A stretch of DNA of 64,000 bases from Armatimonadota bacterium (GCA_030649165.1 JAUSGG010000015.1:29238-93237); one strand, 5' to 3'; positions 45,952-64,000 are shown, counted from the first letter of the stretch. Translations and numbers: made by a program. The notes: generated by a model from the letters alone, not told the origin.

Positions 45952-47019
45952 TTACGTAAACCTCTTCCCCGTCACCTCTTCGTATATCGCAAGCACGTTC
46001 TCGATCGGCGTGTCGGGCTGGATGCAGTGCGCGGGGGCGAAGATGTAGCCTCCGCCTTTACCGATTACGTCTATGCGGTGGCGGGCTTCGGCGCGGCATT
46101 GTTCTACTGTGCCGTGGGGCAGGGTCTGCTGGGTGCTGATCATGCCGCAGTAGGTCAGGCGGTCGCCGTGTTCGCGTTTCAGCTCTTCGGGGTCCATGCC
46201 GACCGGCTCGGGTTGGACCGCGTCGAGCACGTCCAGGCCCATGTCGATCAGCCTGGGCTGCAGCAGCCGCGTGGAACCGCAGGAGTGCATCATCGCCTTT
46301 GCGCCATAGTTGTGCGCAAGCTTGATGAACTTCTCGATGCGCGGGCGGAAGAAACTGTCGAAGGTCTCCGGGCTCATCGTCGGCCCCTTCTGTGAACCCA
46401 AATCCTCACCGAGGCATAGAATGTCTATTCCACCCTGCGCCGCTTCCAGCGATCCCCTGCACCACTCGTAGTAGAAATCGACGCGCCTGTCGATTATGGC
46501 GATCCCGACCTCATCCACGGTGATGATGTCTACCAACACCTCCGCCATGCCGCGGCCTCGCCCGACCCCGTTTATGATGTCCGGAATACTCGCGCTGCCT
46601 AAGCAAACCGCGTAATCTTTAACATTGTTGACCAGCTCGGGGAGAACCGAATAGTCGTAGTCGTCGGCATTTGGCCAGGGGTAACGCTCTACCTCGTCGA
46701 GCGTTGACAATCGACCCAGCGTCAAGTCGGTCGCCTCCAGATACTGCCCACCTGCGTCGTTGGCCACGAGCGAATAGCCGATTCCCCACATATCCCGCGC
46801 GTCGCAATTGTCTTCGGCCTCCGGCGCCCTGTACCTCGGCCGCCCCACCGGCTCCACGGATCGGAAATCCACTTCAAACGCAACACGGTAGTCCGTTTCG
46901 CCAAAATGCCCGCGAAGCGCCGCGTCGATCTCCGGTGTCACATATATCGTAATCGGCGGTCGGTCCGGTTCCTGATGGGCAATAGCCAGCCGCACACGTT
47001 CCTTCGGTATCAATGCCAT
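45952..47019 (-). CDS. Uroporphyrinogen decarboxylase (URO-D)-like family protein (not in a heme context)
   Basis: URO-D fold conservation in the C-terminal half. Start MALIPKERV with RBS GGGAGA. Confidence 0.65.
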   Translation of the reverse strand: MALIPKERVRLAIAHQEPDRPPITIYVTPEIDAALRGHFGETDYRVAFEVDFRSVEPVGRPRYRAPEAEDNCDARDMWGIGYSLVANDAGGQYLEATDLTLGRLSTLDEVERYPWPNADDYDYSVLPELVNNVKDYAVCLGSASIPDIINGVGRGRGMAEVLVDIITVDEVGIAIIDRRVDFYYEWCRGSLEAAQGGIDILCLGEDLGSQKGPTMSPETFDSFFRPRIEKFIKLAHNYGAKAMMHSCGSTRLLQPRLIDMGLDVLDAVQPEPVGMDPEELKREHGDRLTYCGMISTQQTLPHGTVEQCRAEARHRIDVIGKGGGYIFAPAHCIQPDTPIENVLAIYEEVTGKRFT

Positions 47020-47089
47020 TCCGCTCTCCCGATTGCCGGTCGCGTCCCACTCTATCTGCGTTCTTCCCTGAACCAACCCAACCGACGAG

Positions 47090-51402: not shown

Positions 51403-54400
51403 ATGCGCCGATTCAGTCCATGTTTCTCCCTGGTTCTTGTCGTCTGGCTGTTCCTGGCGATAGTCCCCGCGCTTGCTGACATCGGATTCGTGTACACCTG
51501 CGACCAGGTCCCCCACCTGGCTCCGTCGGCGTGGAACGTGTCTCCAAACGGCCCGTCAAACAGCGTCCATACGGAACAATGTGGAGGAAGCTGTAATGGC
51601 ATCACAAACAGCGTAGTTACGGACGGGGGATCCAACGTGTGGAAGGTGGTGGACGCGAACACATCCTACTGCGGAATCTGGAAAAACGCCAACCTGAGCG
51701 GCATGAATTTAGGCAGGGGCGTGACGATAGCTGCCAACATAAGGTGTGAGGAAAACTCATCAGACAGTTCCTTTACGCTTGGTATTAATAAGACGAATTC
51801 CGCTGTGCTGTTTCTCTGCGTCAGAACGGATGGCTGCCTTCTTATGGACAGAGAAGGCGTGGTAAAGAGTTCGTACTCATTTACGGCCGACACCACGGGC
51901 TACCACCGCTATTATCTGACCGCACAGAATCCTCCCGGGGTGGGCGACGACCAGTGTGTCTGGACTGTCTATCGAGACGGCCAGTCGGTGATGACCTATA
52001 CACCAGGTCTTCTAGCGAACTGGACAGCCAGCAACGCATTCTTCGCCGGGCACGGGGGACCGTATACGACGAATATTGGCTCCGGGACGGGAACGTGGTA
52101 TTTCGACTGGATCGCGTGCAGGACTGACGGAGCCTTCAGCCCAAGCCAGTGGGACCCCATGCTTCCGCCACCGGCTCCGACGGTCACGGCGCCGGCCAAC
52201 GGTTCCACGGTCATCATCCTCAACCCAACCATACAATGGACGAACACCTATTACGACAGCTATGAGGTCCACGTCACCACGACAAACAACCCCACCGGCG
52301 CCATCGCCTGGGACTCCGGCGTAGTGGTGAGCACAGCGAATTCCTGCACTCCGGCCAACCTGGCGAACGGGTCATATTACATATTCATCCGCCTGCGCGC
52401 CCCTGCGGGATGGGGACCCTGGAGCGCCGAAGGTTACAGGTTCACGGTTGATGCGCCTACCAGTCCGCCCGTCGCGCCCACTATGACTGCGCCTGTTCCC
52501 GGGTCAACTCTGAACACAAGAAACGTCGTGATTGGGTGGACGGGAGGCACGCGCGACGGCTACCAAGTCCACATAAATACCACCAATCTGCCGAACGACG
52601 CGGACGGATGGGACTCCGGCTCGGTAATGAACAAAGCCAATGACTGCCTTTCCGGAAGCCTTGCGAACGGCTCTTATTACGCTTTTGCCAGGTTGCGCAA
52701 TCTGGCCGGCTGGGGGGAATGGAGCACGGGCGTTAACTTCACAGTGGACGTTTCGTCAGTCCTGCCGGGGGCGCCCGTCGTGGTAACCCCGATGGACGGG
52801 TCGAACGTGGCGCTGCAGAAGCCCGTGGTTCGGTGGATCGGAGATGCGCACGACAAATACGAGGTCCATGTCAACACAACGAACACTCCTGCCGACACGG
52901 ACGCCTGGACCTCCGGCGAGGTATCCAGCGCCGATGACTGGTGCGACTCCGGTATCCTGACCAACGGAGCCTACCACGTCTTCGTCCGCGTGCATAACGA
53001 CGCGGGCTGGGGTCCATGGAGCGCCGGACGAGCCTTCACGGCGAACTTCACCGGCTCCGAGATGAAGAAGGGTTGGATCTTCCTTCGCGACGACCTGCCT
53101 TACCACCTGGAATTGCTCACTCACGCCCGTGAGTACCACGTGAACCATTTGCAGATATCCCACGACATAATGATGTACGCTTGGCAGCCGATCAATGATG
53201 TGGCAAAGCGCAGCAAGATCAACCAACTCATTGATACGGCTCACGCTAACGGCGTAAGCGAAGTAGTATTGTGGTCTCACGAGATAATGTACCGCGACTT
53301 GCCGCCGCAGTACAGAGTCGGCGGAAAGGTCAACCTGGACGATCCCGGCTTCTGGACGTGGATGGACTCAGAGTACGAAACACTGTTCACAGTGTGCCCG
53401 AACGCCGATGGACTCGTTTTCACGTTCAGCGAGTCCGATGTGGACTTCGACAACCGTTTCGAAACCATTCACACCGGCAAGACGCCCATAGACACGTACG
53501 CCAAGGCGATTGAGACCCTGTGGAACGTCTGCCACAGGCACAACAAATCCCTCTACATACGCACTTGGGGATCTGACAAGTGGATCCGCGACGGCCTCAT
53601 GCGCAACGATCCCGCCATCTGGCTCATGAATAAGGCCACCGGCGCCGCCGACTGGAACGTGATCCAGGAAGATTACGATATGGTCGGCACGGCTCCGGGG
53701 CATCCGGAGTTGATGGAATTCGACTTTACGGGCGAGTATTGGGGACTTACCTACACTCCGTGGGCCGGCATAGACTTCACGCGACACCTGTGGTCCGAGT
53801 TTGGCTTGCCGCGCGGGGTTGATGGCATGGCGGCAAGGATAGACAGAGACAACGGAAACGCTGTCCAAACTCCCAACAGGATCAATATGGCCGCGCTGGA
53901 TATTCTGGCTGATTCCCCGGACATCTCTTCCGATGATATCTACAGCTATTGGTCTAACCACTGGTTCGGCCCCTCGGGGGCGAAGATAGCGTCTTCGCTG
54001 AAGAGGACCTTCGACATCACGAACGCCTGCTACGGCCTGCCAACCGTCTACCCGTTCTCCTATTGGGTCGCTATCAACGACATCAAGTCATCCACGTTCG
54101 ACCTGAACTGCGTGGCCCCCAGCCTCAAAGCCGACACCAACTACCAGTCCGGCGTCACGGCCTACGACCTGTTCCACGGGCGAATGATGAACGCCGCGGC
54201 CAAATTGGGGATTGGCGTACCGACAACACTATTCGGCGACTTCACGCCCATTTACAGCAACGAGACGAGCCCGACGTGTACCGCGACGATCGTGGACGCG
54301 TCAACGGGACTGAACCCGTCCTCGTTCTACGTCGAGTACTCTACGGACGGCGGATCATCATGGACCCCCTACTCCAACATCACGGTCACGGCGGAGGGAT

Positions 54401-57159
54401 CGTCGACTAACCCTTACCACATAACAGCCAACTCCGTGCCTTTCGGGCAGGTTCGGGTCGCAAAGAACAAGCTGAGGTTTGGCGCCGCCAATCTGGCCGG
54501 CGGCGCAAACTCCCAGGTCTTCACCGTTCGAGGCTCGGACGTTGCCTACGCCACGCTCGGGACTGACGTGGAGACCGACGGGATCAATTACGCCCAGGGC
54601 GGAGACGGGGACACTACCCCGGCCACCATGGGAGGAAGATCCTGCCGCACACCCGCCACAACAGGCGACTCCAACTTCTATTTCCAGACAGATGAAGGCT
54701 TTGCTTTCGACAGATCGCCGCGAACAGTCTATCTTCAGGTGGACTACTACGGTTCGTCCGGCTCCATCGCGCCCTGGTACGACAGTATCTGGAGAAACGA
54801 CGAACCGCTTCCGCCGGTCTACCTGAGCGGAGGCACGACCTGGCGCACCGCGACATGGAAGCTCGACAGTGTGAACTTCGGACACAGGTTGAGCGGGTGG
54901 TTGGATTTTGCCCTTCGCGTTCCCGGCGGCTCCGGAACGGTTTTCATCAGCGACGTAAGGCTATCCTATTCGCCGCCTGCCGGAACGCTTGCTCAACCCG
55001 CGGGTCTCAGGACTTCGGCCCTCTCGCCGACCAGCGCCGGGCTTGTGTGGACCCCGGTGGCTGGCGCAACGACGTATCAGGTGTGCAGGGACGGCGTCTT
55101 CGTCGGGTGGTCGAACACCCCCAGCTTCACAGACTCAGGGCTTTCGCCAAATACGCAATACGCGTACACGGTGACTGCGTTCAACGCGTCGAATCACAGC
55201 TCGCCCGCAAGCAGGAACGCGTACATTACTGCTCTCGCCGCGCCGGTCTCCCCCACGACCATCACCTCCGACCCTCTTCCCGGGACTTGGCAGACTTCGG
55301 ATTCCATCAATTTCACGGCTGTCGGCGGGTTCGGCGCCGGGAAAGTGGCCTACTATCAATATGCCTGGGACCAATCCCCAAACCATGTCTGGACCGGAAA
55401 CGAACCGACTTGGCCGGCAACGACAGGCAACCCTCCGTCCGGCGCCGGTTGGGACGTGTGGCGAGCCACCTCTTCGCCAGTAAACCAGGCCCCTTGGCTC
55501 ATGTACGAAGGCTCAACCCAGCAGCGATGCATGTCTGAAGAGACTACGCTGGAGAACGGGATACCAACCTGGATCCTTAATGACCAGGGCCGCGTCTTCG
55601 GGACCAAGGGCAAGTTTGCCATTTGGCCGAACCTGCCCACTAACAGGGATACTGGTATGACCGTCGTCGGAAGAATCAGATGCGTGGACGAACCGTCGGG
55701 TTGGTATAACACCAGCACGAACTTCGGAATCAACCTGCTTGATTGCCCCGATATCGGCATCTCTATCAGGCCGGACTCTCTCCAATTGGGCGGAGACCAG
55801 TGGCAGCCTGCTGACAACGGTTACACCTACCACACTTACACCCTGACGTTGAAGAATGCCGGCCCGGGCAATAACAACACGGCTGTATACAGCCTGTACC
55901 GAGACGGGAGCTTTGTGTCGAGTATGGTCCAGGGGCCATCAGGACCCAGCGCTCGGTCAGGCCCGTTCTTCGGACATTGGAGGAGCGACGCCACCGGTGG
56001 ATGGGCTTGGCAGTGGATCGCATGGAATGCCACCGGGGCCTACGTTCCGTCGAACAGCGCGACGCTCACAACGACCGCTTCTCAGTACGGCAGTTATTAT
56101 CTCCACATCAGAGGCTTCAACTCAGATGGAGCGCCTGACGCGGCGGCCAACCTCGGCCCGTACTACTACTGGAACGGCTCCACTCCTGTCGACCCAACGG
56201 TTATCGACGATGGCGATTACACAACCGATGACGCTATTCACGCTAAGTGGAGCCCCGTGGCCCCGGACGGTGGAACAGCGATCTCATACGAGTACGGCAT
56301 AGGGACCGCCGCCGGTCTCGACAACATCGTTCCTTTCGCCGATATCGGCCCTTCGCTTGAAGTCATCAAAACAGGGCTTCATCTTGCTGAAGGAAGCACA
56401 TACTACGTGACCGTCAGAGCGATCGCCGGCGCCACCGCCTACAGCGGATCGAGCGACGGCATAATCGTTGCTCCCAAGCGGCAAAGGGTTGCCCATATCA
56501 AGAAGCTGGCGGACGACGATCCTGTGGCCCTCTACGGTAAGACTGTTACCGCCGTATTCCCGGATTACGCCTACATTCAGGACAAGAACGGGATGGGGAT
56601 CCGGGTGGTCACCGCAAGACCGATAGCGGAGGGCGATATCGTCGATCTTGCCGGCACAATCATCGGTTCAAAGGAAGAACGATGGATAGAGGCTGATTCC
56701 GTTTTCAAGAGGGGGGCCGAAACGCCTAAGCCGCACTCTCTGTCAACCGCCGGAATCGGCGGCTCCGAATACGGCGAACCCGGAACCGGCAAAGGCCAGC
56801 CGGCTACCAAGGCCTATCAGTGGTTTGTCGACAGACAGACAAAGAAAAGAGTCAGGTCTACGGTCGAGTTGGACGTTCCGGGGCTCAACACGATCGGCCT
56901 TCTAGTAACGACTTACGGTCGGGTGACTTCGGCCGCCGGGAATAGTTTCTACCTGGACGATGGCTCCGGACTGGACGAGTACTATGACACTAAGAGGGAC
57001 GGCCCGGCGGGGATCAAGGTCCGGTTGCCCGAAAACATCTCGGCGCCTGCGCCTGGGACCTTCCTCTCGGTCACGGGAATAACTTCCTGCTATAAGTCCA
57101 GGGGCCATCTCAATCGCCTCCTTCTCGTGCGCCGCCTGAGCGACTTGCAGACATTCTAG
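51403..57159 (+). CDS. Giant secreted multidomain protein (1918 aa): signal peptide, 2 LamG/ConA-like lectin domains, 3 tandem roughly 95-aa Ig/FN3-like repeats, putative glycosidase-like central domain, FN3 and CBM-like domains
   Basis: Internal repeats (YEVHVNTTN...WDSG...NGSYY...AGWGPWS, three copies). Duplicated NIRCEE...YRDGQSV...WYFDWIA module. FN3 segment LRTSALSPTSAGLVWTPV...YQV. Confidence 0.8.
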   Translation: MRRFSPCFSLVLVVWLFLAIVPALADIGFVYTCDQVPHLAPSAWNVSPNGPSNSVHTEQCGGSCNGITNSVVTDGGSNVWKVVDANTSYCGIWKNANLSGMNLGRGVTIAANIRCEENSSDSSFTLGINKTNSAVLFLCVRTDGCLLMDREGVVKSSYSFTADTTGYHRYYLTAQNPPGVGDDQCVWTVYRDGQSVMTYTPGLLANWTASNAFFAGHGGPYTTNIGSGTGTWYFDWIACRTDGAFSPSQWDPMLPPPAPTVTAPANGSTVIILNPTIQWTNTYYDSYEVHVTTTNNPTGAIAWDSGVVVSTANSCTPANLANGSYYIFIRLRAPAGWGPWSAEGYRFTVDAPTSPPVAPTMTAPVPGSTLNTRNVVIGWTGGTRDGYQVHINTTNLPNDADGWDSGSVMNKANDCLSGSLANGSYYAFARLRNLAGWGEWSTGVNFTVDVSSVLPGAPVVVTPMDGSNVALQKPVVRWIGDAHDKYEVHVNTTNTPADTDAWTSGEVSSADDWCDSGILTNGAYHVFVRVHNDAGWGPWSAGRAFTANFTGSEMKKGWIFLRDDLPYHLELLTHAREYHVNHLQISHDIMMYAWQPINDVAKRSKINQLIDTAHANGVSEVVLWSHEIMYRDLPPQYRVGGKVNLDDPGFWTWMDSEYETLFTVCPNADGLVFTFSESDVDFDNRFETIHTGKTPIDTYAKAIETLWNVCHRHNKSLYIRTWGSDKWIRDGLMRNDPAIWLMNKATGAADWNVIQEDYDMVGTAPGHPELMEFDFTGEYWGLTYTPWAGIDFTRHLWSEFGLPRGVDGMAARIDRDNGNAVQTPNRINMAALDILADSPDISSDDIYSYWSNHWFGPSGAKIASSLKRTFDITNACYGLPTVYPFSYWVAINDIKSSTFDLNCVAPSLKADTNYQSGVTAYDLFHGRMMNAAAKLGIGVPTTLFGDFTPIYSNETSPTCTATIVDASTGLNPSSFYVEYSTDGGSSWTPYSNITVTAEGSSTNPYHITANSVPFGQVRVAKNKLRFGAANLAGGANSQVFTVRGSDVAYATLGTDVETDGINYAQGGDGDTTPATMGGRSCRTPATTGDSNFYFQTDEGFAFDRSPRTVYLQVDYYGSSGSIAPWYDSIWRNDEPLPPVYLSGGTTWRTATWKLDSVNFGHRLSGWLDFALRVPGGSGTVFISDVRLSYSPPAGTLAQPAGLRTSALSPTSAGLVWTPVAGATTYQVCRDGVFVGWSNTPSFTDSGLSPNTQYAYTVTAFNASNHSSPASRNAYITALAAPVSPTTITSDPLPGTWQTSDSINFTAVGGFGAGKVAYYQYAWDQSPNHVWTGNEPTWPATTGNPPSGAGWDVWRATSSPVNQAPWLMYEGSTQQRCMSEETTLENGIPTWILNDQGRVFGTKGKFAIWPNLPTNRDTGMTVVGRIRCVDEPSGWYNTSTNFGINLLDCPDIGISIRPDSLQLGGDQWQPADNGYTYHTYTLTLKNAGPGNNNTAVYSLYRDGSFVSSMVQGPSGPSARSGPFFGHWRSDATGGWAWQWIAWNATGAYVPSNSATLTTTASQYGSYYLHIRGFNSDGAPDAAANLGPYYYWNGSTPVDPTVIDDGDYTTDDAIHAKWSPVAPDGGTAISYEYGIGTAAGLDNIVPFADIGPSLEVIKTGLHLAEGSTYYVTVRAIAGATAYSGSSDGIIVAPKRQRVAHIKKLADDDPVALYGKTVTAVFPDYAYIQDKNGMGIRVVTARPIAEGDIVDLAGTIIGSKEERWIEADSVFKRGAETPKPHSLSTAGIGGSEYGEPGTGKGQPATKAYQWFVDRQTKKRVRSTVELDVPGLNTIGLLVTTYGRVTSAAGNSFYLDDGSGLDEYYDTKRDGPAGIKVRLPENISAPAPGTFLSVTGITSCYKSRGHLNRLLLVRRLSDLQTF

Positions 57160-57265: not shown

Positions 57266-57294
57266 TTGACACTCCCGGGCGCCGATGGTAGAAT
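57266..57294 (+). promoter_or_regulatory. Sigma70 promoter TTGACA - 17 nt - TAGAAT for tRNA-Leu, preceded by a direct repeat (ACTCTGAGCTTT, two copies)
   Basis: -35 at 57266-57271 and -10 at 57289-57294, about 19 nt before the mature tRNA 5' end. Confidence 0.65.
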
Positions 57295-57312: not shown

Positions 57313-57398
57313 GGGGATGTGGCGGAATGGCAGACGCGCTTGGTTGAGGGCCAAGTGACCGCAAGGTCGTGGAGGTTCAACTCCTCTCATCCCCACCA
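57313..57398 (+). tRNA. tRNA-Leu (anticodon GAG), long variable arm, genomically encoded CCA
   Basis: Manual fold. Acceptor GGGGATG/CATCCCC, 3-bp D-stem, anticodon stem CTTGG/CCAAG, loop TTGAGGG, T-arm, A73, CCA. Confidence 0.85.
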
Positions 57399-57566
57399 AT
57401 TGTCGAAGCCGCTTTGCTTGCGGTAGAGCGGCTTTTTTGCCGCAGGGCGGCCCTGTCTACGGGAGCCATGGTGCCCAGAGAGCGAAGCGTGACCGGTGGG
57501 GGGCCTTCCTGCTAGACACAACATCTTGCTCTTGCCTTTGCCTACAAGAGGAAAAAAGGGAACGTC

Positions 57567-58097
57567 GTGAACCTTGACTGGCTCAACACTAATGCGGGAG
57601 CTTCCGCCGTCCTAGTGACGGCAGTGCTGGTGGTCGTGACGGCAGTCTATGTTTGGCTGATGCGCAGCAGCGTCAAAGAACTTGAACGCCAGCGGCTAGC
57701 CACTGCCCTGCCTGTCGTAGTGGGTATATGGGAAATCCCAACTCAAGAGTTAGCGCTTCGCGATGCAGAGTTTCACCCGGTGTTGCCCTATCTGCACATC
57801 CGGAATTGTGGCAATGGTCCCGCGCTGGATGTCTCAATGACTGTTGATTCAAATGTCGGAATAGGGCTGCATGGAGAGAAAACAAGAAAGTGGGTCCTGC
57901 GGGCTCTCGAACCATCCGGGCAGCATAATACTGGGATCGCGCAGTATGTCGATACGTCCGAAAAGCCTGCTTTCGATGTCACCATCGAATCTCACGACAT
58001 ACATAATCGCAGGGTGGTGACGAGGCACACTATGGATGTGGACGGCTGTTTGTATATGGAAGTGAATGGCAAGATACTGGTTGGCAAGAAGCCGTAG
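57567..58097 (+). CDS. Hypothetical membrane-anchored protein (islet gene, visibly lower GC); GTG start
   Basis: N-terminal TM (AVLVTAVLVVVTAVYVWL). RBS AAGAGGAAAAAAGGGAA. Confidence 0.55.
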   Translation: MNLDWLNTNAGASAVLVTAVLVVVTAVYVWLMRSSVKELERQRLATALPVVVGIWEIPTQELALRDAEFHPVLPYLHIRNCGNGPALDVSMTVDSNVGIGLHGEKTRKWVLRALEPSGQHNTGIAQYVDTSEKPAFDVTIESHDIHNRRVVTRHTMDVDGCLYMEVNGKILVGKKP

Positions 58098-58185
58098 ATC
58101 AAGCTTGCTGGGCTGGCTCAGAAAAGCGTGATCGCCGTTCCTGGCCCTTCCTGTCTCCGGGCGACAGATGCCCCTCCCGGCAGTG

Positions 58186-59232
58186 TCAGGGCATTCTTAC
58201 GCAGCGGAAGCCTTGAGAACCATAGAGAGGGACGCCCTTCTCCGGATCACCACCACCCCGAGCGGCACACCTGAAGGTAACCAGGGCGGCGCTACCAAAG
58301 TCCCATGAACCTCCGCGCAGCACACGCGACCGCCCTTCCGCAGGACCAGTGGGATTCGAAGACGGGGCCGTCGCATAGTAGGTTTCATCGTCGTCGTACC
58401 AGTCGGCGCACCATTCAACCGCGTTTCCTGCCATGTCACAGCACCCATAGGGACTCGCTCCCTTGGGGTAACTGCCCACAGGCATTGGGCCGTCCAGTTC
58501 GCGCTTCACCGAGTTAGCGCAGCGCGAAGGGTTCCATTTGTTTCCCCATGGGAAAATGCGCCCGTCGGTACCCCGCGCGGCCTTTTCCCATTGCGCTTCC
58601 GTTGGTAGAGATGCGTCAGCCCATTTCGCATAGTCCGCTGCGTCCTGCCAAGTCACCCCATCTACGGGTCGGTCGTTCTTCCACCCGATATAGGGCGGGT
58701 CGGGCATGGCTCTGCCTGTTGCCTTGCAGAACCGTCGGTATTGCGTGACCGTTACCTCGTACTTGTAGATCCAGTACCCATCGAGGTATATTCTGCGCTG
58801 TGGCTTTTCGGAGTCGCACCAACTTGCCTGGACGTACTTCGGATTACCCCTCAGCATTGCCGCAACCTCTGAATCCGTGCTGCCCCTCAGAAACTCTCCC
58901 GCTGGAACCCAGACCATCTTCGCGCCATCTCGTGGATTGGTGCGCACCTCGCCGGCCTTTGCAGGGCTGACTGGCACGCGACTACTGGTAGCTGATGCAG
59001 GCGGGCTCGCACTACTATGGGCGGGACGAATAGCACCCTGGGGAGTGGGCACGAATAGCTTGGACAAGAGCACTATAAGTGCTATAAGCACAACGGCAGC
59101 GATTACCAGCGCGAGATTCACCGGCACAGTGAACCAGTTTCTGACAGCCCGCGCTCGCGCCTGCCTCTCGGCTCGAATTCGGGCTTCTTCTTCTTCGTAA
59201 ATCCTGCGCCTTTCCTCCGGTGTCAACTGCAT
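58186..59232 (-). CDS. Formylglycine-generating-enzyme (FGE/SUMF1) domain protein with an N-terminal charged helix and TM anchor
   Basis: FGE-sulfatase domain conservation (DGYWIYKYEVT, WEKAARG, RVLRGGSW, GFRCV). Start MQLTPEERRRIYEEE with RBS GGAGG. Confidence 0.75.
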   Translation of the reverse strand: MQLTPEERRRIYEEEEARIRAERQARARAVRNWFTVPVNLALVIAAVVLIALIVLLSKLFVPTPQGAIRPAHSSASPPASATSSRVPVSPAKAGEVRTNPRDGAKMVWVPAGEFLRGSTDSEVAAMLRGNPKYVQASWCDSEKPQRRIYLDGYWIYKYEVTVTQYRRFCKATGRAMPDPPYIGWKNDRPVDGVTWQDAADYAKWADASLPTEAQWEKAARGTDGRIFPWGNKWNPSRCANSVKRELDGPMPVGSYPKGASPYGCCDMAGNAVEWCADWYDDDETYYATAPSSNPTGPAEGRSRVLRGGSWDFGSAALVTFRCAARGGGDPEKGVPLYGSQGFRCVRMP

Positions 59233-59246
59233 GTCAAGACCTCCGT

Positions 59247-59714
59247 TCAAACCCGCCAGCGGTATCCGCAGTCGTGGCATTGCCTGTGAGTTTCGGTGAC
59301 TGGCTTCCGGCCAACAAAGGGAATAAGGAGAAGCAGTGGCGCAAAGAGACAACAGCCAAGGCAACCCGCAGCCCACTTCATAGAATCGTCGCCACCCGAT
59401 TCTACCTCGAACTCCTTGATGCGTGTTGACCCGCATTGCGGGCACTTGCCCAGCTTAACCGAGGCCCAATAGGCAGCTTCCCTCTGCGCGTCCCGCTTGC
59501 GCCTTTGTTCGTCGAGCTCTGCCTGGCGTTGCTCGTTATACAGGGCGCGGCTCAGTCTTTCCTCGTTCGCCTTGCGCCTCTCTTCCTCTGCTATGCGGGC
59601 CTTCTCTTCCCTGTGAATCCGGCGGCGTTCTTCGGGCGTCAACTCCGCCATAGGTTTCAACTCGTCCGTTTTCTCGCTCTTCTCTTTGGGCTGTTCGGGA
59701 GTCTCTTCACTCAT
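59247..59714 (-). CDS. Zn-ribbon (CPQC...CHDC) small membrane protein sharing the N-terminal TPEERRRI motif with the adjacent FGE-domain gene
   Basis: MSEETPEQ...MAELTPEERRRIHREEKARI. C-terminal TM and CxxC pairs. Start choice uncertain. Confidence 0.5.
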   Translation of the reverse strand: MSEETPEQPKEKSEKTDELKPMAELTPEERRRIHREEKARIAEEERRKANEERLSRALYNEQRQAELDEQRRKRDAQREAAYWASVKLGKCPQCGSTRIKEFEVESGGDDSMKWAAGCLGCCLFAPLLLLIPFVGRKPVTETHRQCHDCGYRWRV

Positions 59715-59906
59715 TCTGTTCACCATCCTTAGAGTCACAGGGATCCGGCGCACTGTATGCAGCCGGGGTCTCACGCCGTTTGTGGCAACGAAAAGTAAGG
59801 TTAGAGTCCCTCGTACATAGCCCCGCCATGCCGCAGGCTCCGTCATGGGATTTGCGACGCGCTCGGACCACCTGCCGAGCGCCATATAGTGACAAGCCCA
59901 TCTGAA

Positions 59907-60629
59907 TCACTTCCTGCGCTTCAGCAGAACGCCTCCCAAGCCACTGACGCTACAGAGGAGCACAATAAGACCGGAGGGTTCGGGGACAACCACCAGACTT
60001 CTTGAGACTTCGTCATACGACCAATTGGCAACGCCGTGGCCGCGGTCTACGGCACTGACTGACAAGCTGCTAATCCCAATATCCGACGTAAACCCGTGGT
60101 ACTCAGGGCCATATTGGATGAAGAGCGGGTGTGATATGCTTACCAATGTAGCTGCGCCATTCGCTTCATTGAGAAGCACATCCCAGTCGCCGTTCCACGA
60201 CTGGAACCAGAATCCTATGGCGCCGACACGCTTCCCGGTACCGAAGCTTATTGTGTGCGTCCCGATAGCGTTGGTCATCAAAGAGCCGGGGGCGCTCACT
60301 GTGCTCCACGGCGAATCCCATATGTGCCAAACTGCTTGTCCCGGGTCAGGCAACCTCTTGTTGGTCTGGTAGGAGACCCCATCAAGCTCGATTTCGTACG
60401 TGTAGAAACGAATTGGGTAAGAAGGCCGGGGAAACTCGTCGAACGTCTCAGTGGACGCTATGGAAGCATTGGCTCGGAAGCCGGGTTCGGATGTATAGTG
60501 ACTCACTGCGGCATGGGCAATGCCACCGAACGGCGGAAAGCCAACCAGGGCCAACCCTATGCTCAGGACGATAATAGCCCTCACTGACACGGCGGCGGCT
60601 GCAAGTAGGCAAAGTGTGAAGCGGTTCAT
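59907..60629 (-). CDS. PEP-CTERM sorting-domain secreted protein
   Basis: Signal peptide. C-terminal VVVPEPSGLIVLLCSVSGLGGVLLKRRK. Confidence 0.8.
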   Translation of the reverse strand: MNRFTLCLLAAAAVSVRAIIVLSIGLALVGFPPFGGIAHAAVSHYTSEPGFRANASIASTETFDEFPRPSYPIRFYTYEIELDGVSYQTNKRLPDPGQAVWHIWDSPWSTVSAPGSLMTNAIGTHTISFGTGKRVGAIGFWFQSWNGDWDVLLNEANGAATLVSISHPLFIQYGPEYHGFTSDIGISSLSVSAVDRGHGVANWSYDEVSRSLVVVPEPSGLIVLLCSVSGLGGVLLKRRK

Positions 60630-60946
60630 CCCTTTCCTCCTCCTGCCCTGTTCGGGGCGTCAAGACACAAAAAGCCCGCTGTACTACAGGTCTGCTGACA
60701 GCAGCCCCGGTATTGCGCGGGCTCAAGCTCCTTATACTCCAAACCGTGCCTGCCTGTCAAGAATGACTTGACACAGGAAAGCGCGAAAATGTAACATACC
60801 AGCACAGGGTAACACGAACCAAGTAGGGTTATTGGGGTATCGTCTTCCCCACTTGGTTCATGCGGAAGGCGTCTGAAGCTTACCGCGCATGGTTACGAAT
60901 CAAGCAAGGTATTCTGTGCTCAGAAGGGTCAAGCGCGCCGGTGTTC

Positions 60947-61025
60947 GGCGGAATGGCAGACGCGCTTGGTTGAGGGCCAAGTGACCGCAAGGTCGTGGAG
61001 GTTCAACTCCTCTCATCCCCACCAA
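60947..61025 (+). repeat. 79-bp perfect direct repeat of the 3' part of tRNA-Leu(GAG) (pseudo-tRNA lacking the 5' acceptor strand); attR-like islet boundary
   Basis: Identical to 57321-57399. The 5' acceptor strand is replaced by a non-pairing sequence. Confidence 0.8.
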
Positions 61026-61108
61026 AAGCAACCTCGCCGTCCCAGGCGCTCCCCGTACTTGTTCCCTCCCCGCTCGAACCGCCGTGCCGTGAGTGGAGTC
61101 GAATCGAG

Positions 61109-62137
61109 ATGAACTCAGTGGATAGAGTAATGACAGCCCTGCGCCGGCAACAGCCGGACCGCGTTCCTATTGTCGAGTTCATAATCGACGAAAGAATAGC
61201 AAGAGCGATCGATCCGGACGCCCGTGACGTGCCCGACTTCATGGATCGTATAGGCTTGGACGGAGTGTGTTGTGGAGCATCCTTCTCTAAGGTTTCGGAA
61301 AGCGAGGATGGAACATACGTCGACGAGTGGGGAGTTACCTACAAGACCGACGCCATCGAGTTCGTCAACCATCCTCTGAGAGGTCCAATACGAACACTCG
61401 AAGACGCCAAACGGTACAGTCCGCCCGATCCGGACGCGCCCCATAGGCTGGGCAAGCTGCCCGATATGGTAGATCGTTACAAGGGCAAGAGGGCTATCGT
61501 CTTCTTCCACCGGGCGGCTTTCATGTGGTCAGCCTACCTGATGGGCTTGGACATGCTTCTGGAATCGCTTCTCGCCGAACCCGAATTGGCGGAACTCGTG
61601 ATGGACAAAGTCCTCGAGGCCAACATCGCCGTCGCCCGACGCGCAGTACGCGCCGGGGCCGAGGTCGTCGTTCTTGGCGACGACTTTGCGCACAACACAG
61701 CGCCGCTCATGAGCCCGGCGCTGTTCGACGAGTTCATACTCCACCGCCTCACAAAGATGGTCCGCGCGATCCATGACGAAGGCGCGTTCTGCGTCAAACA
61801 CACTGACGGTAACATATACTCCATCCTGGACCCCATAGTCGCGTCGGGCGTCGACGCGATCAACCCCATCGAACCATTGGCCGGAATGGATCTAAGAACG
61901 GTAAAGCGACTCGTCGGCGACAAGGTCTGCATCGTAGGAAACATCGACTGCGGTCATCTTCTCTCAAATGGCTCCCCGGAAGAAGTAGAGGCCGCCGTGA
62001 TCAGGGCGATACAGGACGCCGGAGCCGGCGGCGGATATATCCTTGGCAGTTCCAACAGCATCCACAGCTCCGTCAAACCCGAGAACTTCGTCGCTATGGT
62101 GCGTACCGCCCGCCGGTACGGCGCCTACGGTTCATAG
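61109..62137 (+). CDS. URO-D-like family protein (second paralog)
   Basis: Start MNSVDRVMTAL downstream of the tRNA repeat. URO-D fold motifs in the C-terminal half. The longer GTG-initiated ORF would overlap the tRNA fragment. Confidence 0.65.
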   Translation: MNSVDRVMTALRRQQPDRVPIVEFIIDERIARAIDPDARDVPDFMDRIGLDGVCCGASFSKVSESEDGTYVDEWGVTYKTDAIEFVNHPLRGPIRTLEDAKRYSPPDPDAPHRLGKLPDMVDRYKGKRAIVFFHRAAFMWSAYLMGLDMLLESLLAEPELAELVMDKVLEANIAVARRAVRAGAEVVVLGDDFAHNTAPLMSPALFDEFILHRLTKMVRAIHDEGAFCVKHTDGNIYSILDPIVASGVDAINPIEPLAGMDLRTVKRLVGDKVCIVGNIDCGHLLSNGSPEEVEAAVIRAIQDAGAGGGYILGSSNSIHSSVKPENFVAMVRTARRYGAYGS

Positions 62138-62188
62138 TCGTTCGTTGACAGTTGTCGGTTGTCGGTTGTCAGTTCTCAGTTGTCGGAC

Positions 62189-62222
62189 TGGTCGGACGTT
62201 TCCGACCAGTCCGACTCCTTCG
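62189..62222 (+). terminator. Strong hairpin (TCGGACTGGTCGGA-cgtt-TCCGACCAGTCCGA) after the URO-D-like gene, preceded by GTTGTCG heptamer repeats; no U-tract
   Basis: 14-bp perfect stem, read directly from sequence. Confidence 0.45.
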
Positions 62223-62264
62223 ACTCGTCCTCCGCCCCTCCGCCTCCCGGCCCGCCTCCCGGCC

Positions 62265-62293
62265 TTGACAACCCCCCTCACATCCCATACAAT
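62265..62293 (+). promoter_or_regulatory. Sigma70 promoter TTGACA - 17 nt - TACAAT for tRNA-Val
   Basis: -35 at 62265-62270 and -10 at 62288-62293. Confidence 0.65.
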
Positions 62294-62314
62294 ATCCTCG
62301 TTGCGTAACCACGC

Positions 62315-62389
62315 GGGCGATTGGCTCAGTGGGAGAGCGCCTCGTTCACACCGAGGAGGTCACTGGTTCGAATCCAGTATCGCCCACCA
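62315..62389 (+). tRNA. tRNA-Val (anticodon CAC), encoded CCA
   Basis: Manual fold. Acceptor GGGCGAT/ATCGCCC, D-stem GCTC/GAGC, anticodon stem CCTCG/CGAGG, loop TTCACAC, T-loop TTCGAAT. Confidence 0.85.
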
Positions 62390-62532: not shown

Positions 62533-64000
62533 ATGATACGGTATCCGAAGCTGCTCCCCCTCACCATCCTTTCCGTCCTGCTGCTGATGACTCTGCCGCA
62601 TATCGCCTCAGCGTCCCCGGAGTTTCAGGAAGCTATTGTCGCCTCCGGCGGCAAATGCGATTGGATTATCTTCGTCCACGAGCCTCCGGCCGGTCTCAAG
62701 CCTTCGGACGTCTATAACCTCGGATGGGCGTACTGGACTTACGGTTTCGAAAAGGTAGCGGCGGACGAACTGGCTTCGCTCATCGAGAAGATGACCGGCG
62801 CCAAACCGCAAGTCGCGACGGTGATTGACAAGTCCGAGATTCCCGCCACGAAAGCCATAGTCGTTGGCTCCTTGGCAGCCGACCTGGGAGCTATTCCGCC
62901 CAAGAGCAAGTACGGGATCGACGGGAGTGTGGTCCAGGTCGAAAAGGACAGAATACTCCTCGCCGGCGAAACCCCCCTCGCCTCCTACTTCGCAATGGTC
63001 CGGCTCGCCGAGATGGCCGGCTGCAGGTGGTACATGCCCGGCGAGCTGGGGGAGATCATCCCGAAGCTGGATGAGCTTGCTTTCAAGGAGGGTAATTACG
63101 AGGAGGTTCCGACGGTCTGGTCCAGGTATTTGTGGTTCCACGGCGGGGACGACGCAGCCGTATCGGGGCAGAGCCGTTGGCTGCTTCACAACAGGCAGTA
63201 CGGCAGGGTCGTCTCGTGCGGCCACAACTGGGAGAACATTCTGCCGGCATCGAGGTACTTCAAGGACCATCCGGAGTGGTACGCGTCTATCCACGGAAAT
63301 CGAGTGCCTTTCATGCTCTGCACTACTAACGAGGAGATGACGAAGGAGTTCATCAAGAACCTCAAGGAGTTGATCAAGGCCAATCCCAGCCAGACGTGGT
63401 GGTCTATCTCGCAGGACGACGGCAACTGGTTCTGCGACTGCGGTAACTGCAGAGCGCTGGACCCGAACCTCAAGGAAGTCGCAATGCCCGATCTGCCCCA
63501 GATCACGGACCGGCTGGTCAACTTCTACAACAAGGTGGCGACGGAGGTCGTGAAGGAGTATCCCGACAAGTACTTCTGCTTCCTCGCCTACATAAGCACA
63601 ATCGCGCCTCCGCTCAGGGAGAAGCCCCACCCGCATCTTATGCCGATGATCGCGCCCATCTTTCACTCGTCATACCGGCCAATAGGCGCGCCGGACTGCG
63701 AGGACATGCAGGCGCTCAAGACATATGTCGAGGGCTGGAGTGGGATGTGCGACCAGATCGCGTTCTACGACTACGGCTTCAATCTCAACGATCTTGTCCT
63801 GCCTTACACGCGGGAGAGCCAGACGCGCCTCGATATGCCGTTCCTGGCGCGAAACAAGACCGGGTGTGTGTGTATTGAGACCTCCAACGTCTGGCAAAAC
63901 CTGCTGCCTTATTACTACCTGCTGGCCCGGATGAATATCGACCCCGGGCTGGACGCCGACAAGGTGGTGAACGAGTTCTACAGGGACTTCTTCGGCCCGG
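62533..64000 (+). CDS. Secreted DUF4838-like (glycosidase-like) protein, 3'-partial; not in the supplied ORF track
   Basis: ATG at 62533 with RBS GAGG. Signal peptide MIRYPKLLPLTILSVLLLMTLPHIASA. Frame stays open to the window end. LCTTNEEM...WWSISQDDGNWFCDCGNCRALD resembles DUF4838. Confidence 0.7.
   Translation, partial: MIRYPKLLPLTILSVLLLMTLPHIASASPEFQEAIVASGGKCDWIIFVHEPPAGLKPSDVYNLGWAYWTYGFEKVAADELASLIEKMTGAKPQVATVIDKSEIPATKAIVVGSLAADLGAIPPKSKYGIDGSVVQVEKDRILLAGETPLASYFAMVRLAEMAGCRWYMPGELGEIIPKLDELAFKEGNYEEVPTVWSRYLWFHGGDDAAVSGQSRWLLHNRQYGRVVSCGHNWENILPASRYFKDHPEWYASIHGNRVPFMLCTTNEEMTKEFIKNLKELIKANPSQTWWSISQDDGNWFCDCGNCRALDPNLKEVAMPDLPQITDRLVNFYNKVATEVVKEYPDKYFCFLAYISTIAPPLREKPHPHLMPMIAPIFHSSYRPIGAPDCEDMQALKTYVEGWSGMCDQIAFYDYGFNLNDLVLPYTRESQTRLDMPFLARNKTGCVCIETSNVWQNLLPYYYLLARMNIDPGLDADKVVNEFYRDFFGP

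Follow-up and report, generated by a model that had tools for sequence, protein, structure and literature searches.

Integrative elements that use tRNA genes as targets leave a published signature, in which the tRNA gene is regenerated at one end of the inserted DNA and a displaced 3′ fragment of it stands at the other (PMC4383910; PMC9897764). The Islander database collects genomic islands of tyrosine integrases in tRNA and tmRNA genes and requires an integrase gene inside the island (PMC4383910). An element that retains attL and attR but has no integration genes is a cis-mobilizable element (CIME) (PMC5704250). Fragments of tRNA genes that are miscalled as tRNA genes are a known annotation problem (van der Gulik et al. 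2023, PMC9897764). Here we describe a locus of this kind in an Armatimonadota bacterium (GCA_030649165.1), at positions 57,313 to 61,025 of a 64,000-nt stretch of one contig (JAUSGG010000015.1:29238-93237), which we call the window. A tRNA-Leu(GAG) gene is followed there by a segment of ~3.5 kb, 57400-60946, which lies between two copies of a repeat derived from that tRNA and which we call the islet. A sequence-only reading had taken the arrangement for the attL/attR scar of integration into a tRNA 3′ end. Our analysis supports this, indirectly, by the repeat, the composition, the homology of one arm to a junction in another lineage (locus L120) and an empty site in that lineage (L182). The islet is probably what is left of an integrative element that inserted site-specifically into the 3′ portion of tRNA-Leu(GAG), and we class it as a decayed, CIME-like remnant, a new example of a kind already known.

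Like the Islander islands, the islet has a regenerated target tRNA, a 3′ fragment in direct orientation, a new 3′ end and terminator from the insert, and a modestly deviant composition. It differs from them in having no integrase gene inside and in an unusually long identity block (79 nt, from tRNA position 9). With CIMEs it shares two features: the attachment repeats are kept, as two identical 79-nt copies, and integration genes are missing. CIMEs, however, were defined for decayed integrative conjugative and integrative mobilizable elements (ICEs and IMEs) of Firmicutes, and their mobilization by accretion with an incoming ICE was shown experimentally, whereas neither a parent element nor an accretion partner nor movement was seen for the islet. 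The second copy matches category 1b of van der Gulik et al., a partial tRNA duplicate at the far end of inserted DNA that is miscalled, here by ARAGORN. The integrated elements in that work (PMC9897764) are of ~9-23 kb, as against 3.5 kb here, and in our case the fragment amounts to almost a complete tRNA (79 of 86 nt). The islet's sole link to an autonomous element is the homology of its one arm to the end of the primase-bearing element in L120. P4-type satellites and primase-carrying islands integrate in tRNA-Leu genes, P4 itself at leuX, and the L120 element resembles them in having a P4/D5-type primase gene beside a displaced tRNA-Leu fragment. The islet is unlike the P4 satellites in that it has no primase, integrase or other P4-like gene, and its target is tRNA-Leu(GAG) in Armatimonadota.

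The intact tRNA-Leu(GAG) lies on the plus strand at 57313-57398 and would be the regenerated target gene on the attL side. It is called by ARAGORN, scores 53.3 bits with Rfam RF00005, and has the cloverleaf as its minimum-free-energy fold (-37.9 kcal/mol). Its sigma-70-type promoter, on the host side at 57266-57294 (plus strand), reads TTGACA-17-TAGAAT with TG before and matches at 11 of 12 positions. A short promoter also stands directly upstream of intact tRNA-Leu(GAG) genes in the comparison loci L130, L085, L112, L182, L087, L196 and L154. The repeat is exact and is the single one of its kind reported by the repeat search. Copy 1 occupies 57321-57399 and copy 2 60947-61025, both on the plus strand, 100% identical over 79 nt and 3626 nt apart. 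The identity runs from tRNA position 9 to one base past the CCA. Two sub-patterns of it, of 25 and 35 nt, have exactly two occurrences apiece in the window and none in 100 shuffles.

Copy 2 is the displaced, 5′-truncated fragment on the attR side, and ARAGORN labels 60937-61024 a second tRNA-Leu(GAG). The truncated copy scores 26.9 bits, below the Rfam gathering score of 29. In the Rfam alignment it has two adjacent C-C acceptor mismatches and, past the acceptor strand, a 2-nt insertion, and its minimum-free-energy fold is not a cloverleaf (z -0.37). By its acceptor pairs, its fold and its Rfam score alike, it does not qualify as a functional tRNA-Leu gene. The earlier description of an intact tRNA-Leu with its own promoter, and of a perfect 79-bp direct copy of its 3′ portion without a pairing 5′ acceptor strand, is thus borne out. 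Directly after the intact tRNA, and within the islet, a terminator-like hairpin at 57405-57438 (plus strand; 14-bp stem, -20.6 kcal/mol, z -3.3) is followed by UUUUUU; there is none after copy 2. It was found by folding, and a simple terminator scan gave no call there. Since it lies inside the islet, the terminator would have been supplied by the inserted DNA. At the opposite end, on the islet side of the truncated copy, are an outward-facing promoter-like site (60768-60797, plus strand, TTGACA-18-TAACAT) and a conserved leader or arm of ~150 nt (60798-60946, plus strand), which together make up the ~185 nt beside that copy.

A modest break in composition coincides with the repeat-bounded segment. 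The tetranucleotide distance of the islet is 0.0303 against 0.0198 +/- 0.0031, which makes it the most deviant of 121 window segments of the same size, and its GC content of 0.572 against 0.592 is in the lowest 2.5% of segments. The islet genes have a GC content at third codon positions (GC3) of 0.59-0.66, as against ~0.72 in the background. Their pooled synonymous-codon fit is -1.245 against -1.102 +/- 0.071, two standard deviations lower, and three of the four fit more poorly than all background genes. The URO-D-like gene outside the islet looks native (GC3 0.694, codon fit -1.117). The profile of GC content and codon usage that had been proposed as a check therefore does reveal a discontinuity, if a modest one.

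A further comparison comes from a pair of loci in another lineage. In L120 a phage/P4-type primase gene, of which the C-terminal part is present (phrog_6088, E 3e-53; Pfam Pox_D5, E 3.6e-9), is followed by an open reading frame (ORF) of 154 aa, a promoter, the leader and a tRNA-Leu(GAG) fragment. L182 has an intact tRNA-Leu(GAG) with a short promoter and no copy of a 13-nt motif that recurs in the leader. Over the tRNA from position 7 on and the host DNA behind it, the two loci agree at 216 of 221 positions, and their upstream DNA is unrelated; the L120 fragment is identical to the intact gene of L182 from position 7 onward only. On this comparison L182 is the putative empty attB, and L120 the putative attR junction of the occupied site in a sister strain. 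The pair thus assigns the leader and the 5′-truncated copy to the element side. The layout of the window is alike, except that the truncation falls at position 9 and not 7, and we therefore take 60768-61025 for the attR end of a member of the same element family. No full-length parent element was found in IMG/VR or in the phage collection.

The same loci bear on a different history, in which no mobile element took part. An ancestral promoter-leader-tRNA-Leu unit, as in L162, would have been duplicated locally; a new copy with a short promoter would stand upstream, the old copy would have lost 8 nt, and the four genes in between would be chromosomal and fast-evolving. The module can drive real tRNA genes, to judge from L162, where the leader precedes an intact tRNA-Leu, and from L189, where promoter and hairpin precede tRNA-Val. 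Duplication without an island does occur in other bacteria, since L091 and L126 have true tandem duplicates of the complete tRNA-Leu(GAG), inside long tRNA arrays. The closest relatives of the FGE-domain protein of the islet include Armatimonadota proteins, which also suits chromosomal genes. But neutral decay would scatter changes, and here 79 nt are identical while the difference is limited to the 8 nt before the block. L120 and L182 show the truncated copy and leader beside a primase gene, and an empty site without them. The islet also deviates in composition and codon use, and the terminator follows copy 1 and not copy 2. We consider such a duplication unlikely. No related sequence was found with the same two-copy arrangement, which all relatives might be expected to carry after an ancient tRNA duplication.

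Every feature of the window fits recombination of a host tRNA with a partial copy borne by an element, and an arrangement with the leader as host DNA could not arise from one such event. The element would have carried its own copy of tRNA positions 9-76 plus the CCA. Recombination within the shared stretch would have joined the host promoter and tRNA 5′ end to a 3′ end and terminator that came with the element, and the working gene at 57313-57398 would be the product. The fragment thereby displaced, which has no 5′ acceptor strand, would have been left at the far end, 60947-61025, where it continues into host DNA. The right arm, with its promoter and its ~150-nt leader with three 13-nt motifs, would be common to this element and the primase-encoding element of the other lineage. 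The integrase and replication genes would have been lost later, leaving four envelope-type cargo genes between two att-like repeats, and further movement would depend on a related integrase supplied in trans. That integration took place in this genome, where the crossover lay and that the integrase was lost are inferred from the repeat and truncation, the gene content, the compositional deviation, the arm homology and the occupied and empty pair.

The use of tRNA-Leu(GAG) as a target is not confined to these loci. In metagenome loci, 2 of the 63 ORFs that closely follow tRNA-Leu(GAG) genes have a phage-integrase domain, so the gene is used as a target elsewhere. In L172, a copy of ~30 nt of the tRNA-Leu(GAG) 3′ end lies ~1.4 kb downstream of the tRNA (42-1575). 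A 275-aa ORF (596-1423), apparently a membrane protein by eye, is the only listed ORF of at least 230 aa between the copies, and none is of integrase size. L172 appears to be a similar integrase-less mini-islet, independent and in an unrelated lineage.

Since the source is a metagenome-assembled genome, we also weighed an artefact of assembly. The tRNA-Leu would then really join 61026 onward, and the 3.6-kb segment would be a separate circle, or belong to another strain, threaded in through the 79-nt stretch. Logan contig L081 (3607 bp, run SRR13727527) is identical to window positions 57370-60976. It consists of the islet and 30 nt of each repeat copy, which is what a k=31 graph should yield on branching at a genuine repeat, and its identity indicates that both the islet sequence and the branching are real. 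The graph breaks exactly at both repeat copies, where any k below 79 cannot distinguish the alternatives; in the k=31 graph alone, an integrated islet and a circle with an empty site look alike. The repeat is, however, shorter than an ordinary read, so that a larger k or read paths resolve it, and the submitted contig of 111,761 bp passes through both copies. The segment moreover has no replication gene. Misassembly is highly improbable on these grounds, and the segment would even then be an excised integrative element with its attP, which would change the biology little.

The four genes between the repeat copies agree with the earlier account of a lower-GC membrane-type protein, an FGE-domain protein, a zinc-ribbon protein and a PEP-CTERM-like protein, the last two with scores near their cut-offs. 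The first (57567-58097, plus strand; GC 0.533, the lowest in the islet; GC3 0.588) encodes 176 aa with an N-terminal hydrophobic stretch by eye. It has no Pfam, NCBIfam or PADLOC match and belongs to a thin family, with 36 representatives at <=35% identity among 1.84 billion proteins. The second (58186-59232, minus strand) encodes a membrane-anchored protein with an FGE-sulfatase (SUMF1/EgtB/PvdO) domain (Pfam PF03781, E 4e-48). Its best full-length relative, P0017, is 69% identical and is encoded in an unrelated neighbourhood without a tRNA (L082/L083); a conserved cargo module was rejected on this account. The third (59247-59714, minus strand) encodes a LITAF-like zinc-ribbon protein (Pfam PF10601, 24.0 bits against a cut-off of 23.8), with weak PHROG zinc-finger matches. 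The fourth (59907-60629, minus strand) encodes a secreted protein of 240 aa with a PEP-CTERM-like tail, where the TIGR02595 match spans residues 215-240 and falls just below threshold (15.0 bits against a cut-off of 16). This protein is an ORFan; among 5.8 billion proteins its sole match is itself, in an entry from an Armatimonadota metagenome-assembled genome. The FGE-domain and zinc-ribbon proteins both start with a motif LTPEERRRI(Y/H)xEExARI, with a hydrophobic stretch further on. P0017 has the motif as well, and between the two islet proteins it has no significance by BLASTP. None of the four proteins has a paralogue in the window.

The absence of an integrase from the islet, which the sequence-only reading had reported, held in domain searches of the four proteins with Pfam, NCBIfam, PHROGs and PADLOC. 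The intergenic gaps of 88-317 nt are too short for a hidden one. No integrase was found among 29 other window ORFs of 190-570 aa, a scan that leaves out ORFs of more than ~580 aa in the first 35 kb. The 29 comprise ordinary chromosomal genes, among them prs, pth, cmk, prephenate dehydrogenase, DAHP synthase, an ABC transporter and a two-component system. The islet has no phage hallmark gene (integrase, primase, capsid, terminase or repressor) and so does not qualify as a prophage or phage satellite. Its only PHROG matches besides the zinc-finger ones are a generic match of the FGE domain, annotated "kinase". PADLOC gave no defence-system match among the islet proteins, and IMG/VR holds no relatives of the 176-aa or zinc-ribbon proteins.

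The right arm is more unusual. A hairpin with a 13-15-bp stem (60816-60859) begins 18 nt beyond the promoter-like site, and a 13-nt motif that repeats the hairpin's 3′ arm occurs as a third direct copy at 60882-60894. The window leader is related to that of L162 (nhmmer E 3e-8), which precedes a complete tRNA-Leu(GAG). The module is also upstream of the tRNA-Leu(GAG) fragment in L120, and a shorter version lies directly upstream of tRNA-Val in L189 (covariance model 36 bits, E 3e-7, as against 135 bits for each of the three seeds). The 18-nt distance from the -10 hexamer to the hairpin recurs in L162 and upstream of the tRNA-Val in L189. Between lineages the hairpin stem shows compensatory changes, and within each lineage the copies of the 13-nt motif change together. 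Copies of the 13-nt motif are confined to this arm within the window. The leader occurs once in the 64-kb window and, among 204 loci, in only a few that are linked to tRNA-Leu or tRNA-Val, so a dispersed REP-like repeat was rejected. A leader peptide was also rejected, since the short ORF of the window leader is, by eye, not kept in L162. The leader matches no Rfam family and was not found in the phage collection or IMG/VR. Given the complete tRNAs behind it in L162 and L189, it may come, by capture, from a native tRNA operon.

A degenerate tRNA-Leu(GAG) pattern retrieved 120 metagenome loci, and these show what usually follows the gene. The most similar tRNA-Leu genes match at 75-79 of 86 nt and have the same acceptor type. 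The gap from tRNA-Leu(GAG) to tRNA-Val(CAC) is 7 nt in L130, 11 nt in L112, 81 nt in L162 and 2099 nt in L189. The tRNA-Val genes of related loci are identical to that of the window (62315-62389, ARAGORN) at 65-70 of 75 positions. In L154 (tRNA-Leu 71/86) the gap is 1208 nt and holds a single gene of 327 aa, provisionally a GH130-type enzyme by eye. No tRNA-Val(CAC) is downstream in L085 (77/86) within 7.3 kb or in L196 (76/86) within 1.6 kb, and at less similar loci other tRNAs are next in line. The ancestral arrangement was most likely a tRNA-Leu(GAG)-tRNA-Val(CAC) pair. The earlier proposal that the empty site would be a tRNA directly followed by the URO-D-like gene probably does not describe the ancestral state. 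Since tRNA-Val is 7-81 nt behind tRNA-Leu in three of the most similar loci, the URO-D-like gene would be an older insertion into the Leu-Val gap. In the window that distance is 4916 nt and holds the islet and the URO-D-like gene. Across the related contigs and the window, gaps of 7, 11, 81, 1208, 2099 and, here, 4916 nt show that it has been filled repeatedly in this group.

These gaps matter for a further idea, which adds to integration and does not replace it: that the promoter, leader and truncated tRNA together form a working transcription unit. In one version, the outward promoter may keep downstream genes (originally tRNA-Val, here the URO-D-like gene) expressed after integration severs them from the tRNA-Leu promoter. 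With tRNA-Val only 7-11 nt behind tRNA-Leu in L130 and L112, an insertion there would orphan it; the tRNA-Val of the window, though, has its own promoter at 62266-62294. In a second, the unit may produce a non-coding RNA across attP, with the terminator 57405-57438 as its end in the excised form only. In a third, the three 13-nt motifs may be arm-type or operator sites for a lost recombinase or repressor. The concerted change of the motif copies within each lineage, and their absence from the empty site L182, favour a function, and a lone half-site in L189 favours DNA recognition over an RNA stem. Promoter, 18-nt spacing and hairpin are conserved across four loci, with the compensatory stem changes already described. 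Against this, the comparison has only three or four sequences, there is no Rfam family, and the leader and fragment folded as a whole (z -1.9) are no better than shuffles at conventional thresholds. We regard a working unit as a tentative suggestion.

Stated more generally, and with equal reserve, the promoter, hairpin leader and truncated tRNA-Leu could have a conserved function, as a module of a family of elements that target tRNA-Leu(GAG) in Armatimonadota-like bacteria. The transcript of such a module would span the attachment site, ending at the element's terminator when excised and reading into host genes when integrated. It would keep the downstream tRNA operon expressed or report the state of integration, and the three co-varying 13-nt motifs would be RNA pairing partners or arm-type binding sites.

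Several observations weigh against integration of an element as the origin of the islet. There is no integrase, excisionase or transfer gene in it, and thus neither the recombinase family nor the crossover point is given. An identity of 79 nt that reaches the D arm is longer than a crossover in the anticodon loop or T loop needs. The similarity between the leaders of L162 and L120 is weak on its own (E 0.07-0.09), and the leader's position before complete tRNAs in L162 and L189 means that it may be a native tRNA-operon leader of the clade. The compositional deviation is modest, and ~21% of the islet is non-coding DNA. Finally, no close relative of this genome was found, the neighbouring proteins being at most 53-68% identical to their matches, and neither its own empty site nor an excised form was seen. 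A search for that site through the URO-D-like neighbour gave 80 genome loci at 36-68% identity, and in all 24 that were scanned there was no tRNA nearby, hence no synteny. Exact tRNA patterns had no match in JGI metagenomes or IMG/VR, and neither the URO-D-like protein nor the 1918-aa protein encoded upstream of the tRNA had an exact database match.

The flanks of the islet contain some further features. The 1918-aa protein (51403-57159) is secreted and has repeated domains, and 150 nt separate its end from the tRNA-Leu promoter. Its C-terminal part has relatives of no more than 53% identity, and L084, the only contig looked at for them, is without a tRNA; a 44%-identical relative of this part (P0006) is encoded on another contig of the same genome. 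On the other side, the URO-D/MtaA-like gene lies at 61109-62137, between the truncated copy and tRNA-Val(CAC), with native-looking codon use, and a second gene of the URO-D family is at 45952-47076. Local alignment of 61026-62314 marked no second repeat-bounded island around it. Tandem accretion was rejected as well, since no third degenerate tRNA-Leu fragment was found in 61026-62314, in the islet, or between tRNA-Leu and tRNA-Val of L189 and L154, where alignment scores were within the range of shuffles. Past the URO-D-like stop, at 62146-62215, short tandem GTTGTCG/GTTGTCA-like repeats are followed by a perfect 15-bp hairpin (GTCGGACTGGTCGGA / TCCGACCAGTCCGAC). This region folds at -36.9 kcal/mol (z -4.9) and has no T run after it. 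From ~62534 a plus-strand gene for a signal-peptide protein (MIRYPKLLPL...) continues past the end of the window (62534-64000). A 352-aa minus-strand ORF at 62608-63666, with no Pfam match, is probably a spurious antisense frame of it.

The L189 gap is occupied by a 2.1-kb insertion (98-2196, minus relative to the locus) with two unknown ORFs, between tRNA-Leu(GAG) and tRNA-Val(CAC). Two hairpins flank the insertion, identical in stem sequence (AAGCACGGT...ACCGTGCTTGG) and different in loop. The lone half-site of L189 is upstream of its tRNA-Leu, and a gene with the phage-associated DUF5681 is also found upstream.

In annotation, it is best to treat the second "tRNA-Leu(GAG)" call as a gene fragment and not a second gene, and to mark the four genes between the copies as probable horizontally acquired cargo. 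That cargo is of an envelope type, with a PEP-CTERM-like protein, an FGE-domain protein and two others with hydrophobic stretches that resemble membrane anchors. As an example of envelope genes delivered to a tRNA hot spot and stranded there, the locus is small and clean, and it comes from a poorly sampled phylum, Armatimonadota. The only part of the finding that is not routine is the conserved promoter-leader arm. If that arm is functional, it would be a case of an element offsetting the transcriptional damage that its own insertion does to a tRNA operon.

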